Sequence record: NC_107631.1
Source of the DNA: a phage
DNA length: 50,078 bases
Strand: one strand, 5' to 3'
The notes beneath the pieces are model-generated. The model ran no database searches and was not told the origin of the DNA. It saw nothing but the letters and a program-made list of their open reading frames with translations. Numbering within the stretch: position 1 is the first letter of the stretch; each line of letters begins with the position of its first letter. Made by a program: the position numbers and the translations under genes. Positions 1 through 50,078 of this stretch are shown here, piece by piece.

Positions 1-409
1 AATCAAATTTAAATGCACTTCCGCAGAAAAAATCACAGGATTCGAAGTTAATAATCTGTACAAAGGTCGTGAGCACGACGACGGCACTCGCGAAGTAAAG
101 TTAAAATGCGGTAAGTATTTAAAACTTGAAAAGCATGATGAATTACATATTCACGGATCTGATGAAATCTTCTTCGCGAAGTTCACTGAGTTGAAAACAA
201 AGACGCTCAAGTGCACCGGACTTGACCATCGCAACCCGATGAAAAAATCATTCAAGGTTGGAAAGCGTTACCAGGTAGAAAGCGGTCGCGCTCTCGGTGC
301 TGTGGCTGGTTACATCTTTGATGAGGACGGTTGCCGCTGGACCTTATACAGATCCGATATTGGATTTGAGGTAGCTGACGGTACGAAGTTTGAAGGACTT
401 TACTCATGA
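1..409 (+). CDS. hypothetical protein, 5'-truncated at window edge
   Basis: Frame is open from position 2 to the stop at 407-409; internal repeats of K-x-K-C-T / F-E-V type; overlaps the next start (ATGA). Confidence 0.5.
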   Translation, partial: IKFKCTSAEKITGFEVNNLYKGREHDDGTREVKLKCGKYLKLEKHDELHIHGSDEIFFAKFTELKTKTLKCTGLDHRNPMKKSFKVGKRYQVESGRALGAVAGYIFDEDGCRWTLYRSDIGFEVADGTKFEGLYS

Positions 410-39449: not shown

Positions 39450-39641
39450 TTAGAATTGTCCCTTAGTCATATCCTGCGGGTAATCAATCTCATGCAAGTT
39501 TCCATCATCCCCGTACACGAATACAAGTCTCTTTGATTTACTAACCTTTTCTACGTCGTACGCGCACCCCGCCGAGAAAGCATTACCATTGCGTGAAGTG
39601 ACACATCTAACCTGATCGCCTTTCTTCGGTAAATTAGCCAT
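39450..39641 (-). CDS. hypothetical protein
   Basis: 63-aa ORF in compact same-strand array. Confidence 0.45.
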   Translation of the reverse strand: MANLPKKGDQVRCVTSRNGNAFSAGCAYDVEKVSKSKRLVFVYGDDGNLHEIDYPQDMTKGQF

Positions 39642-40453: not shown

Positions 40454-40497
40454 ACTATATCAAATCACCCCATCGACGTTTTAGCAATTCGTGCTAT
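40454..40497 (-). promoter_or_regulatory. dyad-motif middle promoter
   Basis: ATAGCAC-GAA-TTGCTAA; TGaTATAGT extended -10 28 nt downstream inside inverted repeat GTCGATG..CATCGAC. Confidence 0.55.
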
Positions 40498-41066
40498 TTA
40501 TTGATGAACGTGGCGGCTATGTGCTGAGCGGTAATTTCTGGATGGCCTTCGACAGAAAAGAAGTCACATTCCTGATAACCGTTGACCCCAATCATATCGT
40601 CCAGGTAGATATAGTCTCGACTGTCATTATCGAAGTTGCAACCGTTGCGATGTATTCGACATAGCTTTACCTGGATATCACCTTCAATCATCTGCAATAT
40701 TTCATCTTTGAATCCACCATCAGTAAATACCGAAAGGGAGTGAGACTCTTTCACCTTGCTTTCCGCTCGCATACCGAAGAAGCGATTTCCGAACTGCGGC
40801 TTGATGACTTCCTCGCTAATCCAGATCATAAACTGGCGAGGGCTTTTACCGTTCAGGATTGATGCTGGCTCTTCTTTATATCGACGGTCCTCATACAAGA
40901 ACATGAAATACTCGTAGTTAGCTTCACCCAGGATTGCCCGGGCAATCTCAAACATTGGCGCTTTGAAGCTGCGCAAGGCTACGTGATCGTAAGTGTCAGC
41001 CAGGATGCATCCGATAGTGTCTTTTCCCGCGCCAGGTGCGCCGTTTAAAATGATAGCTGTTTTCAT
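40494..41066 (-). CDS. P-loop kinase, polynucleotide kinase-like
   Basis: Walker A ILNGAPGAGKDT resembling the T4 Pnk N-terminal kinase domain; AGGGAG RBS. Confidence 0.55.
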   Translation of the reverse strand: MKTAIILNGAPGAGKDTIGCILADTYDHVALRSFKAPMFEIARAILGEANYEYFMFLYEDRRYKEEPASILNGKSPRQFMIWISEEVIKPQFGNRFFGMRAESKVKESHSLSVFTDGGFKDEILQMIEGDIQVKLCRIHRNGCNFDNDSRDYIYLDDMIGVNGYQECDFFSVEGHPEITAQHIAATFINK

Positions 41067-41748: not shown

Positions 41749-41792
41749 ATTCTAACAAATACCCTTGAGCAAGTTTTAGCAATTCGTGCTAT
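41749..41792 (-). promoter_or_regulatory. dyad-motif middle promoter
   Basis: ATAGCAC-GAA-TTGCTAA then TGtTAGAAT 28 nt downstream inside inverted repeat AAGGG..CCCTT. Confidence 0.55.
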
Positions 41793-42286
41793 TACCAGTA
41801 ATCAACCTCGTAGTCAGCCCAGGCGTCAAAATCACTTTGGCAGAATGTTCCGCTATAATTTTCCATCATTTCATCGATCAGGAAGTAGCATGACTCACCG
41901 TTACGATAGAAGTATGAATCAGCAACGTTACGCGCCCATCGCCCGGCATCTTTCTTGCTCATCTTCCAGTGTTTCATTGCAATTTTCTTGAATGCGCGAA
42001 CAACGCGTTTGCGGATCTTGACATGCTTGTACACCGCATTGCAGCCGTAGGCCATATATTCGTTATTTCCAAGATTCTGCATGATGTAAGGATTAACCTC
42101 TTTCGATGTGATTTCCAGATCGCCATCATCCAGCTTGTCATCTTGAATCTTAGCTGTAATGTAGTGACCTTTGAACATACCTAAGCCATGCAGAGTGTAC
42201 TCGTCGTTAGGTGCTTCAATACAGATTAGGTGTTTCATTCGTGCTTCCTCTTTTGTTGGTGTAGGGGAATCATAGCGCATTCCCAT
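41792..42286 (-). CDS. hypothetical protein
   Basis: 164-aa ORF with Trp/Tyr-rich C-terminus. Confidence 0.5.
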   Translation of the reverse strand: MGMRYDSPTPTKEEARMKHLICIEAPNDEYTLHGLGMFKGHYITAKIQDDKLDDGDLEITSKEVNPYIMQNLGNNEYMAYGCNAVYKHVKIRKRVVRAFKKIAMKHWKMSKKDAGRWARNVADSYFYRNGESCYFLIDEMMENYSGTFCQSDFDAWADYEVDYW

Positions 42287-42312
42287 TGATAGGTTTTAGC
42301 AATTCGTGCTAT
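42269..42312 (-). promoter_or_regulatory. dyad-motif middle promoter
   Basis: ATAGCAC-GAA-TTGCTAA then TATGAT 28 nt downstream inside inverted repeat GGGAAT..ATTCCC. Confidence 0.55.
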
Positions 42313-42671
42313 TCGTTTTAATAGTGATGCAAAAATAATTTTTTAAGCACGTCACTACGCGCGCTGAATCGACTTGTGGGAGCCTTAAAATTTCGTGGGT
42401 CAATTGCACTGCCGACACATCAGATTTGTAGTAGTGGGCGATTCTGGAGCTATTTGGGCGCATTCCTTCCACTGCGTCGCGTGCTGCATCTTCTGCTGTC
42501 ATGATAGTAGCCATAAAACACCCTTAAGAGATAGAGTCAGAAACAGGAGGCAGAATAACAACTCATGAAATGATGGAGGTTCGTTTTTCCAGTTCTTAAA
42601 GTCAGGCATAAAGCTATTCATATTCACCTCATAAAAATAGGGAACCGCTCAGGAACGATTCCCACTTTAAT

Positions 42672-43328
42672 TTAAACTACGAAAAACAGCACGATAAGAG
42701 AAATAAGAAGCACGGTAGCCATAGCCAGGTTCGCCAGATTATCAATGTCCTTGTTGGTCAGCTTAGGCTTGACTTTACCATCAACTTCGGTTGGCTTAAC
42801 GCTGTGAATCTTACCCTGTTCGATGCGGAAACCGCCCTTGATTCGACTGGTATTAAATTTCTGCTTCTTCTTGCCGAACGTTGCAAACTTAGTGCCGCCA
42901 CTATTCCAGCGAAGACCCTCGCCGTTGTGAGTTACGGTTGCAATGCGGTTGCGACCCGTGTCGTCGGTAATTACAGCTGCGTGCTTTGCGTTCTCGGTCG
43001 GTACATCGTAGATATTGCCAACGGTAAATTTTTTGGTGTTATCGCTGATACATTCGAATTTCATAGTTTTTACCTCTTTATTATGCAGTTGGTTGATTGC
43101 TTCGATTACGTCGTTAAATTTAACACCATCCACGATTCGATGGAAGATATATTTTGAACTACCGCCATATGGCAGGAAAAGCTCCTGGTATTCGTGACGC
43201 CGCACAACGTTCACGTTACTACCGAACTCATCAACTATAACGAAGTTGTCGTCATTGACGCGAGCGCCTTCGTAGATTTTGCCGTACTTAAAACCAGATC
43301 CGATACTTGATACGCATTCAAATTTCAT
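42672..43328 (-). CDS. membrane-anchored protein with tandem duplicated domain
   Basis: Two repeats each beginning MKFEC(V/I)S...G(K/N)IY; C-terminal transmembrane anchor. Confidence 0.5.
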   Translation of the reverse strand: MKFECVSSIGSGFKYGKIYEGARVNDDNFVIVDEFGSNVNVVRRHEYQELFLPYGGSSKYIFHRIVDGVKFNDVIEAINQLHNKEVKTMKFECISDNTKKFTVGNIYDVPTENAKHAAVITDDTGRNRIATVTHNGEGLRWNSGGTKFATFGKKKQKFNTSRIKGGFRIEQGKIHSVKPTEVDGKVKPKLTNKDIDNLANLAMATVLLISLIVLFFVV

Positions 43329-43612
43329 GGTCTAACCTTCCTGTAAGGTTTGATTGATAACATCACGTATTGCGTGAAGTCGCATTCTTGCTCGTCATAC
43401 CCGCGATTGATGTACGGAGTCACGTCGGTAACATCGGATACCCTGGCGTGAACCTCCCAACCGGTAAACTCATCGCGATCGAACTCTCGTAGCTCAAGGA
43501 TATCACCAACCTGGAAGTTTCTGTCATTGACTCGGAACTCTGCCGTTTTGGTTCCGTTCATTACACCAATGAAATGTACCGGGGCGATTTTTAACTTATG
43601 AGTTTTGCTCAT
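43325..43612 (-). CDS. small beta-barrel protein, possibly ASCH/DUF3850-like
   Basis: 95 aa; weak pattern resemblance only; translationally coupled to the downstream gene. Confidence 0.35.
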   Translation of the reverse strand: MSKTHKLKIAPVHFIGVMNGTKTAEFRVNDRNFQVGDILELREFDRDEFTGWEVHARVSDVTDVTPYINRGYDEQECDFTQYVMLSIKPYRKVRP

Positions 43613-43842: not shown

Positions 43843-43886
43843 ACTATATCAAATGGCCTTGCGGAAGGTTTAGCAATTCGTGCTAT
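43843..43886 (-). promoter_or_regulatory. dyad-motif middle promoter (cassette family B)
   Basis: ATAGCAC-GAA-TTGCTAA then TGaTATAGT 28 nt downstream inside inverted repeat GGCCA..TGGCC. Confidence 0.55.
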
Positions 43887-43949
43887 TTAAAACTTTCTTG
43901 ATGCGATTGCGATAAAACTGCATTACGTGCTCATTATGCCAATTGCTCA

Positions 43950-44465: not shown

Positions 44466-44509
44466 ATTATACCAGTCAGGACAAATCCCCTTTTAACAAT
44501 TCGTGCTAT
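44466..44509 (-). promoter_or_regulatory. dyad-motif middle promoter
   Basis: ATAGCAC-GAA-TTGTTAA then TGgTATAAT 28 nt downstream inside inverted repeat GGGGATT..AATCCCC. Confidence 0.6.
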
Positions 44510-44976
44510 TTGGTAAGATACTTCACGTTACTACCAGCAACCTCATTCCAGCCGTCATCAAAGAACACGCTGTAGCACGTTGCTGAGCGCTGTCGAATCT
44601 TCGATACGGTTCGCCACACTTTACGCCCCGAGTAACCAGTCAGCACACGCATCCCTGGCAATAACTCACCCGACTTTCTCACCTTAATAGCCACATCAGA
44701 ATCAAGCTCGAACGACTCAAGATAGACCGGGTTAATCATATTCCACATACGGCGCTCTTCGTGCTCATCTGCCCACTCGCAGCCATTGTTCGTCTTGATA
44801 GATCCAATGAAGCAACCCAGTTTTTCAGTAAGTGAGTCTGCGCGGTATGAGTTGATATCGATGACCGTGTAGTGGCTGTACATATGCCAGTGCGATCCGG
44901 TTTTGTGCTCAAACGCGAAGAATGACATTTCGCCATCAATCTCATCTTTAGCCAGAAATACGGTAATTGTCGCCAT
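44506..44976 (-). CDS. hypothetical protein
   Basis: 156-aa ORF. Confidence 0.5.
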   Translation of the reverse strand: MATITVFLAKDEIDGEMSFFAFEHKTGSHWHMYSHYTVIDINSYRADSLTEKLGCFIGSIKTNNGCEWADEHEERRMWNMINPVYLESFELDSDVAIKVRKSGELLPGMRVLTGYSGRKVWRTVSKIRQRSATCYSVFFDDGWNEVAGSNVKYLTK

Positions 44977-44978
44977 GA

Positions 44979-45173
44979 TTAAGCCTCAGCAAAGTAAGTG
45001 TTAAAGCCTTTGAGTTTGTAGTCGCTACCTACGCGCACAACGTTCCAGGCAAGGCCCGAGTGATATGCAACCATATCCTCAAGGTCGATCGTGATTTCGG
45101 TTCCTTTCTTGAACAGACCCTTTTCATGAGTTGAGTCGCGCTGAACAACAACCACATCAATTTGAGTTTCCAT
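44979..45173 (-). CDS. hypothetical small protein
   Basis: Start moved to Met23, preceded by GAGGAAACGAAG, identical to the RBS of the gene at 46658..46828. Confidence 0.45.
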   Translation of the reverse strand: METQIDVVVVQRDSTHEKGLFKKGTEITIDLEDMVAYHSGLAWNVVRVGSDYKLKGFNTYFAEA

Positions 45174-45205
45174 CTTCGTTTCCTCTGTATCGTGTCGATG
45201 AGAAG

Positions 45206-45249
45206 ATAATACCCGATCCGCTCGATCGGGCTTTAACAAAAAGTGCTAT
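45206..45249 (-). promoter_or_regulatory. dyad-motif middle promoter (cassette family A)
   Basis: ATAGCAC-TTT-TTGTTAA then TATTAT 28 nt downstream after inverted repeat CCCGATC..GATCGGG. Confidence 0.55.
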
Positions 45250-49331: not shown

Positions 49332-49471
49332 TTTATGTTCACACCTTTTATACAGGAAAGTTTAACAGCGTAAAAAATGTTCGCGTTTACGATAGTCACC
49401 AAAAAGCAATGATGCAGAGAGTAGTGCTAGGAGGAACAATCAAAGAGTGCAAAGTAATCTCTGAGTACTGA
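49328..49471 (+). CDS. hypothetical very small protein, not in ORF track
   Basis: ATG overlapping the previous stop (ATGA); coordinates approximate. Confidence 0.25.
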   Translation: MIYVHTFYTGKFNSVKNVRVYDSHQKAMMQRVVLGGTIKECKVISEY

Positions 49472-49515
49472 TAGCACAAATTGCTAAAGACACACACCGG
49501 GGAGTGAGTTATATT
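49471..49515 (+). promoter_or_regulatory. dyad-motif promoter
   Basis: ATAGCAC-AAA-TTGCTAA then TTATAT(T) 28-29 nt downstream inside inverted repeat GGGAGT..ACTCCC. Confidence 0.5.
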
Positions 49516-49777: not shown

Positions 49778-49990
49778 ATGGAACGGGATAATTTCTGGAC
49801 TCGTTATTTTGGCGCTCTTGATGCTGGTCTTAGTGCTGAATGGTGTATCAAGGTAGCGTATAAAGAAATAACGCTTGAAGAGGCTTTGGGTGATATGAAT
49901 ATGGACGAAGAAAGTGAGTTTGATCCTGATTTTGAATTACCAGAAGAACCAAAAAACGAAGATTTAGACGACGATTATATCCCGTGGTAA
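49778..49990 (+). CDS. small acidic protein with SSB-tail-like C-terminus
   Basis: Start moved to Met25 with GGAG RBS; C-terminal DEESEFDPDFELPEEPKNEDLDDDYIPW. Confidence 0.5.
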   Translation: MERDNFWTRYFGALDAGLSAEWCIKVAYKEITLEEALGDMNMDEESEFDPDFELPEEPKNEDLDDDYIPW

Positions 49991-50034
49991 ATAGCACGAT
50001 TTGTTAATATTGCCGTAAGGTCATTTGATAAAGT
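49991..50034 (+). promoter_or_regulatory. dyad-motif promoter (cassette family B)
   Basis: ATAGCAC-GAT-TTGTTAA then TGaTAAAGT 28 nt downstream inside inverted repeat; the whole cassette is near-identical to the one at 43803..43886. Confidence 0.55.
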
Positions 50035-50070: not shown

Positions 50071-50078
50071 ATGAAAAA
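50071..50078 (+). CDS. start of a gene truncated by the window end
   Basis: ATG AAA AA following the conserved AACCAATCAGGAG cassette. Confidence 0.4.

Follow-up and report, generated by a model that had tools for sequence, protein, structure and literature searches.

The gene studied here lies at 42672..43328 on the minus strand of a stretch of 50,078 nucleotides (the window) from a T1-like phage (Drexlerviridae, Tunavirus). It runs from an ATG start to a TAA stop and encodes a protein of 218 amino acids. The original prediction described the architecture of this protein well, but the strand is corrected here to minus. The flanking genes, from about 39.9 to 46.1 kb, are all on the minus strand. 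A 4-kb stretch around the gene matches 252 phage records, and the best matches are Tunavirus phages of Shigella and Escherichia (about 89-91% identity).

The first ATG is preceded by a Shine-Dalgarno site (AGGAAGGT, 43335..43342, minus strand, with a duplex energy of -7.2 kcal/mol) and shares ATGA with the stop codon of the upstream gene (43325..43612, minus strand), which encodes a DUF3850/ASCH protein ('RNA-binding protein', E = 3.2e-16). Because the start overlaps this stop codon, the sequence suggests that translation of the two genes may be coupled. Directly 3' of the gene's own stop codon is an intrinsic terminator (GGGAATCG..CGGTTCCC plus a T-run, 42630..42663, minus strand), and the T1 record labels the equivalent site as a rho-independent terminator. 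On the upstream side, the nearest copy of a 21-nt repeat (AATAGCACGAATTGCTAAA, 43869..43887, minus strand) is followed by an extended -10-like sequence (TGATATAGT). The transcription unit probably starts at this repeat and would comprise a 68-aa ORF, the ASCH gene, and the 218-aa ORF. A candidate sigma-70 promoter within the 218-aa ORF was unconvincing (CATAAT alone, with no -35 element).

Just past the terminator, and overlapping the next gene, there is a tiny ORF with a single transmembrane (TM) segment (MNSFMPDFKNWKNEPPSFHELLFCLLFLTLSLKGVLWLLS, 42499-42621, minus strand), which is apparently the counterpart of T1 Orf67. In phage SH2, a change from TAA to CAA fuses the homolog of our gene to this tiny ORF, which gives a 267-aa protein with two TM segments.

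The repeat is present in many copies. A 19-21-nt motif (AATAGCAC-NNN-TTG(C/T)TAAA) occurs about 20 times in the window, with 9 copies at three or fewer mismatches, versus 0.02 expected. The 21-nt repeat (aaATAGCACnnnTTGnTAAAA) has a core dyad of TAGCA-N5-TGCTA. Besides the copy mentioned above, examples are at 40480-40498, 41775-41793, 42295-42313, and 44492-44510 on the minus strand and at 49470-49488 and 49990-50008 on the plus strand. The copies that we examined are just 5' of an ATG on the same strand that has a Shine-Dalgarno site. Most of the inspected copies have, about 22 nt further downstream, a TGnTATAGT-like extended -10 that a short inverted repeat contains or flanks, and then come a conserved leader (..CAACCAATCAGAGGAA..) and the ATG. 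By sequence, these copies look like promoter-plus-operator units. A 21-nt direct repeat about 76 nt 5' of start codons was described in T1-like phages by German et al. 2024 (PMC11447400); the repeat is also reported in phage TLS, and its role is listed as an open question (PMC11447400). We considered a 19-nt direct repeat that flanks the locus as a pair of recombination scars, but it is this known multi-copy repeat, so we rejected the idea.

Domain anatomy and predicted membrane anchor

The protein had been predicted to contain tandem homologous domains, and formal alignment confirms a significant internal repeat. The alignment of residues 1-58 with 89-146 has a Smith-Waterman score of 65, which was reached in none of 2,000 shuffles of the second part (26.1 ± 4.3, maximum 53). 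With domain 1 as the query against the whole window, tblastn finds domain 2 (E = 1e-4). Both copies open with MKFEC(V/I)S, and the G(K/N)IY motif is at residues 16-19 and 104-107. The sizes that were given (about 90 amino acids each) need revision: the first copy is a barrel of residues 1-66 plus a helix, and the second is a barrel of about 64 amino acids (89-152) plus a tether.

An AlphaFold2 model of the 218-aa protein, with 44 family sequences as input, has a mean pLDDT of 67.9. Domain 1 (residues 1-66; 43131..43328, minus strand) is modelled as a small beta-barrel of six strands, with these strands across residues 2-65 and pLDDT of 72-90 per 10-residue block. The interdomain segment (residues 67-88; 43065..43130, minus strand) has a predicted helix at 72-82. 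Domain 2 (residues 89-152; 42873..43064, minus strand) is the conserved barrel that is found in every family member; it is modelled across residues 89-150 with a similar strand order (seven short strands by DSSP, pLDDT 67-87). A basic tether (residues 153-198; 42735..42872, minus strand) and a C-terminal TM anchor (residues 199-218; 42675..42734, minus strand) complete the protein, with nothing after the anchor. The model is disordered at 152-190 (pLDDT 28-37 in the tether) and ends in a helix at 192-217. Although the tether is variable among phages (see below), both of its alleles keep the motif K-I-H-x-V-K-P-x-E-V-D at residues 173-183.

As originally predicted, there is a single C-terminal TM anchor: the last 20 residues are the only hydrophobic segment, and Kyte-Doolittle hydropathy in a 19-residue window peaks at 2.68 at residues 200-218. 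The scan of the whole 218-aa protein gave neither a second hydrophobic segment nor anything signal-like at the N-terminus (MKFECVSSIGSG), which is not hydrophobic. We found no signal peptide, lipobox, or periplasm-exposed domain in the protein. The 46 residues before the TM segment include 13 K/R versus 5 D/E, with 4 lysines among the last 16, and there are no positive charges after it. With a single TM segment at the end, no signal peptide, and positive charges on the N-terminal side, the protein is a predicted C-tail-anchored protein. Both domains should face the cytoplasm, given a strongly basic tether, a TM segment that nothing follows, and the lack of a signal peptide or lipobox. The GenBank record for T1 describes Orf68 as having a single transmembrane domain with N-in/C-out topology. 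We consider a tail-anchored architecture with both barrels in the cytoplasm to be very likely.

Bacterial C-tail-anchored inner-membrane proteins include ElaB/YqjD/YgaM, Flk, and DjlC of E. coli. Like the phage protein, these have a cytoplasmic domain, a basic juxtamembrane stretch, and one TM segment at the extreme C-terminus. However, they are encoded by the host, their cytoplasmic parts are helical, and they have no sequence or domain kinship to the phage protein.

The family and the origin of the two-domain gene

The protein was originally thought not to belong to any recognizable family, but a profile search places it in phrog_10580 (the T1 Orf68 family, with no annotated function), with a match across residues 1-217 of 218 (E = 1.7e-107). 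The structure-based search that had also been proposed, Foldseek against the PDB, gave nothing significant (see below). No Pfam family was above threshold (we treated sub-threshold hits to DUF7244, DUF1287, and Rpn3_C as noise), and NCBI-style family naming gave nothing significant for the 218-aa protein. PADLOC gave no significant match either (the best, to a Type I specificity-subunit model at 18 bits, was treated as noise), and sequence searches of the PDB with full-length and domain profiles had no match. In the literature on the locus tags, on Bas13 escape mutants, and on early transmembrane genes of T1, we found nothing about the phrog_10580 gene. Database entries for the family already existed, as 'hypothetical', and the T1 record notes its TM segment. 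What is new here is the domain-level anatomy, the proposed origin of domain 1 via an exapted leader that retained its start site, the proposed secondary deletion in T1, and, tentatively, a link of the barrels to the Gp54 fold.

The family is narrow. An index of 5.8 billion proteins contained only 43 homologous clusters, and those with names are from T1-like phages or from phage-sized assemblies of E. coli or Shigella. Searched exhaustively with an HMM, 1.84 billion representative proteins yielded only 8 clusters at E ≤ 1e-3. By tblastn, 67 phage records carry the gene, all of them Tunavirinae of Escherichia, Shigella, or 'Enterobacteria', and at least 80% of the query is covered in 57 of these. 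Every family member that we traced is in a Tunavirinae phage. Conversely, 121 Klebsiella phages have the neighbouring DNA in common with the window, but tblastn found the gene in none of them. The relatives share a gene order of ASCH, the phrog_10580 gene, the terminator, the tiny TM ORF, a 72-aa ORF, an ORF of about 148 aa, and the polynucleotide kinase gene (pnk). Our gene likewise encodes a C-terminal hydrophobic anchor and lies before the terminator and upstream of pnk.

Domain 2, the tether, and the TM segment are common to every full-length member, with about 20 invariant residues in domain 2. Domain 1 was seen only in Tunavirus. The members with the core alone are T1 Orf68 (124 aa), SRT8 gp48 and Bas12_0070 (both from Sertoctavirus), and IME347 gp15 (Badaguanvirus). 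T1 Orf68 (CPTT1_010, AAP49932.1) is a true homolog: it aligns at full length to domain 2, the tether, and the TM segment (64% identity, E = 1e-41), and it has the same genomic position and the same downstream terminator. Unlike our gene, it has no domain 1 and no upstream ASCH gene. The adjoining ASCH gene is kept in Tunavirus, Sertoctavirus, and Badaguanvirus but not in T1. A 21-nt repeat unit is directly before the single-domain gene in T1, IME347, SRT8, and Bas12.

The second MKFEC is preceded by an intact ribosome-binding site (AAAGAGGTAAAAACT). The internal Shine-Dalgarno site (AGAGGT, 43072..43077, minus strand) is 7 nt 5' of the ATG at codon 89 (43062-43064). Its duplex energy, -7.1 kcal/mol, is level with those of the bona fide starts of the operon (-5.0 to -8.9 kcal/mol) and places this ATG in the top 6% of the 230 ATGs in the region. 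The segment from -25 to +15 has a local folding energy of 0.0 kcal/mol, with no predicted structure. Furthermore, the 3' half of the interdomain segment and the 5' leader of T1 orf68 are homologous (ATYGAAGCA..CAACCAACTG..GAGGTAAAA). From these similarities we infer that the junction (codons ~76-88) began as a 5' leader and is now translated, and that the internal Shine-Dalgarno site and ATG are the ancestral translation start of a single-domain gene. The ancestral unit would be domain 2, the tether, and the TM segment, with domain 1 added in Tunavirus. The ancestral start signals would persist at codon 89 because domain 1 was fused in frame through the old leader. The ribosome-binding site, the ancestral unit, and the lack of domain 1 in T1 had all escaped the original prediction.

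T1 itself seems to have lost domain 1. Its sequence upstream of orf68 is identical (59 of 59 nt) to the window's repeat unit at 43869-43887, which precedes the 68-aa ORF, and then changes to the sequence of the junction between domains 1 and 2. The crossover falls inside a short stretch that is common to both (ATYGAAGCA..CAACCAA). Most simply, T1 has a secondary deletion of about 740 bp that removed the 68-aa ORF, the ASCH gene, and domain 1, and this deletion most likely arose by recombination between two leader-like sequences. Overall, we believe that this history, with a domain gained via the leader and lost again in T1, is probably correct. Whether the internal start is still used is less certain: on sequence grounds, production of the short isoform is a real possibility, but somewhat short of an even bet.

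The junction is nearly free of synonymous change. Codons 67-88 have dS of 0.04, versus 0.55-0.65 in the flanking domains, and a valley in nucleotide diversity at 43014-43166 (minus strand, codons ~55-105) is centred on the internal start. This pattern fits either a conserved ribosome-binding region or mosaic ancestry. In conservation, the ASCH gene and the 72-aa ORF further downstream equal the junction, so we do not claim any constraint beyond that of the ex-leader and ribosome-binding region. We also considered a special conserved RNA element at the junction, which was not supported: these neighbouring genes have equally low diversity, the junction between the domains has no Rfam match, and there is no excess of folding energy (z = -0.44).

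Across the two-domain genes of eight phages, the mean pairwise dN/dS is 0.22 for the whole gene, so this is a real gene under purifying selection. Domain 2 is the most constrained part (0.075), followed by domain 1 (0.16), and the tether (0.33) and TM segment (0.44) evolve the fastest. The tether and TM segment occur as two very different alleles, one in the window, Sfin-1, and ADB-2, and the other in most other phages. Between the alleles (42675-42872 in the window, minus strand), dN is about 0.5-0.6. Because the flanking DNA is nearly identical, this suggests that the membrane-proximal part may be swapped like a cassette among Tunavirus phages. The homologs in ADB-2 (L013, 601-1300) and vB_SsoS_008 (L004, 1501-2200) are apparently frameshifted, and these may be real pseudogenes or sequencing errors. 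The SH2 homolog, as noted above, lacks its stop codon and continues into the tiny TM ORF. Given the broken copies in ADB-2 and vB_SsoS_008 and the stop loss in SH2, we interpret the gene as functional but dispensable, as is typical of accessory genes, and this agrees with its originally predicted location in an accessory region.

Fold and similarity to other phage mini-barrels

The barrels appear to be SH3-like and six-stranded, and the best structural match, Gp54 of phage Bas11 (PDB 9AXB), makes a Gp54-like fold a reasonable but tentative lead. A model of domain 2 by itself had a pLDDT of 57.8 and was too poor for fold searching, so the match may lie in either domain. Foldseek against the PDB did not reproduce the match: its best E was 0.08, to tandem SH3, KOW, and Tudor domains, and 9axb was outside the top 50. 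We rejected sequence homology to Gp54: hhalign of the phrog_10580 family against Gp54 gave probabilities of 0.4% and 0.6%, and the 218-aa protein had no Pfam match to the Gp54 family (PF25180) at E ≤ 1. A 'GL.W' motif that is shared with Gp54 is not collinear and is probably a coincidence. Gp54 also differs in being a free, soluble, single domain rather than a membrane-tethered tandem pair.

Gp54 of Bas11 is an alternative trigger of the defence protein CapRelSJ46, as seen in a toxicity assay with co-expression of CapRelSJ46 (PMC11578894). Most of the homologs of Gp54 that were tested, even close ones, fail to trigger CapRelSJ46. Gp54 is the only protein of its fold with a known interaction (with CapRel). 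If the link to Gp54 is true, then the 'very rare' Gp54 barrel would be a recurrent phage module that is either soluble or membrane-tethered. If it is false, then this is an ordinary uncharacterised accessory gene. The window also encodes a true homolog of Gp54 (44979-45173, minus strand, within the ORF 44979..45239; PF25180, E = 2.7e-35). It is 60% identical to Gp54 of Bas11 over residues 1-45, shares the leftward gene block of the 218-aa ORF, from which it lies about 1.7 kb upstream, and is the only match in the window to the Gp54 HMM.

The domain belongs to a loose, uncharacterised group of phage mini-barrels. Against the BFVD, Foldseek found many small uncharacterised phage proteins, including one with DUF7244. 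The most distant relative by sequence, P0049, has four tandem repeats and no TM segment, and it matches DUF6501, DUF7244, and phrog_4927; the link to the DUFs is indirect, via P0049, with scores below the gathering thresholds (14.7 bits versus 27 for DUF7244 and 10-13 bits versus 23.8 for DUF6501). DUF7244, DUF6501, phrog_4927, and phrog_2684 are of similar size and share an N-terminal K-x-K-C-[VIT] ... G-K-x-Y-x-V ... DD-x-G pattern with our domain, and tandem repeats are seen both in P0049 and in an ORF at 2..406 of the window (two repeats). In contrast to our protein, these families lack the tether and the TM segment.

The ORF at 2-406 (plus strand; phrog_2684; MK.IKFKCTSAEK...) encodes a soluble tandem pair of 'KFKC...G..Y' mini-barrels (E = 1e-6 to the domain profile), and a 21-nt repeat unit precedes it. 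Its ATG is at 50071-50073, and its reading frame continues from the window's end into its start, so the window is probably a complete, circularly permuted genome. A 63-aa ORF at 39453-39641 (minus strand) matches phrog_4927 (E = 2.3e-28), a PHROG that it shares with P0049, and has a weak match to the domain profile (E = 3e-3), which would make it the third mini-barrel gene of this phage.

Possible functions

T1-like phages are widely used (they are in the BASEL collection and in screens of defence systems), but the majority of their small genes are without a known function. For the phrog_10580 family, there is now an anatomy (a cytoplasmic barrel, a basic tether, and a tail anchor) and a history. 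Our best overall explanation, to which we assign a probability of roughly 40%, is that this is a dispensable accessory gene of Tunavirus whose product is a tail-anchored inner-membrane protein with domain 2 as the core of a binder. The last 20 residues would span the inner membrane, and the flexible, basic tether of about 45 residues would hold two small barrels at the cytoplasmic face. Domain 2, the tether, and the TM segment would be the functional core, to which most Tunavirus phages would have fused a diverged copy of the barrel, upstream and in frame, through the former leader. The start signals at codon 89 would give a short, T1-like isoform of 130 aa beside the 218-aa protein, and this two-isoform prediction is testable. 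The near-invariant barrel of domain 2 may bind a cytoplasmic partner, from the host or the phage, and domain 1 may add to or modulate this binding. If so, the binding could serve host takeover or counter-defence by keeping the partner at the inner membrane in the course of infection. We propose this last role, as a membrane-tethered binder or sequestrator, only tentatively, as our confidence in it is low. The original suggestion of a host-interaction factor is plausible as a candidate role.

Another explanation is that the barrels, if they are like SH3, KOW, or Tudor domains, act together with the lysine-rich tether to hold RNA or phage DNA at the inner membrane, perhaps in cooperation with the product of the coupled ASCH/DUF3850 gene (PUA-like, RNA-binding). 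This would be similar in principle to p16.7 of phi29, which organises membrane-associated replication. The ATGA overlap with the ASCH gene, the conservation of that neighbour across three genera, the nature of the best (non-significant) Foldseek matches in the PDB, and the excess of basic residues in the tether all fit this idea. However, the positive-inside rule already accounts for the basic tether, and neither barrel is basic itself (11 K/R versus 12 D/E in one and 8 versus 7 in the other). Also, T1 retains the gene without the ASCH gene, and there is no significant match to a known nucleic-acid-binding family. We think that this explanation is unlikely.

The original prediction also suggested an exclusion factor, which the predicted topology does not favour. 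To our knowledge, the known exclusion proteins work from the periplasmic or outer-membrane side, and our protein has none of the features of the Cor, Llp, Imm, Sp, or SieA types (a signal peptide, a lipobox, or a periplasmic domain). A protein that blocks superinfection or DNA entry could instead act within the inner membrane via its TM helix. This would fit a membrane protein from the accessory gene block of a lytic phage, and the rapid evolution of the tether and TM segment, with two alleles, is what might be expected under diversifying pressure. But essentially nothing is exposed to the periplasm, the strongest constraint is on the cytoplasmic domain 2 rather than on the TM segment, and T1-type phage genomes have the Cor exclusion system elsewhere. 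We view such a blocker as quite improbable.

By analogy to holins and antiholins, two isoforms from dual starts might regulate membrane permeability or the timing of lysis. The gene does have an in-frame internal start with a strong Shine-Dalgarno site, a single TM segment, and a tiny TM ORF just downstream (fused to it in SH2 by the stop loss). However, the two starts are 88 codons apart, so the isoforms would differ by an entire 88-aa domain instead of by a few N-terminal residues. The tiny TM ORF is separated from the gene by a terminator, and its variation does not follow that of the two TM alleles. Judging from annotated relatives, the gene is in the pnk-proximal block of small ORFs and not in a lysis cassette: T1, Sfin-1, SRT8, IME347, and Bas12 have only hypothetical proteins and polynucleotide kinase annotated around it, and the holin, endolysin, and spanin genes of Bas11 form a separate cluster. 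A role in lysis therefore seems very improbable.

The similarity to Gp54 raises the idea of a membrane-tethered decoy or trigger, with barrels that are seen by, or that sequester, an immune sensor of the CapRel type. But there is no sequence homology to Gp54, Foldseek gives no support, and close homologs of Gp54 themselves fail on CapRelSJ46, so we give this idea little credence. A combined version, with a two-in-one locus whose long and short isoforms use Gp54-fold barrels, tethered on the cytoplasmic side of the membrane, to inhibit a host immune sensor or act as its decoy, is likewise a long shot; if true, it would provide both the Gp54-like fold and the T1 Orf68 family with a first function.

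Finally, the second MKFEC with its own Shine-Dalgarno site and ATG, and the frameshifts in some relatives, could be taken to mean that two small adjacent genes were merged in annotation or that this is a decaying pseudogene, but we find this barely credible, as there is no stop codon between the domains in the window, family alignments cross the domain junction unbroken, 57 of the 67 records cover most of the query, and dN/dS is low in both domains and overall.
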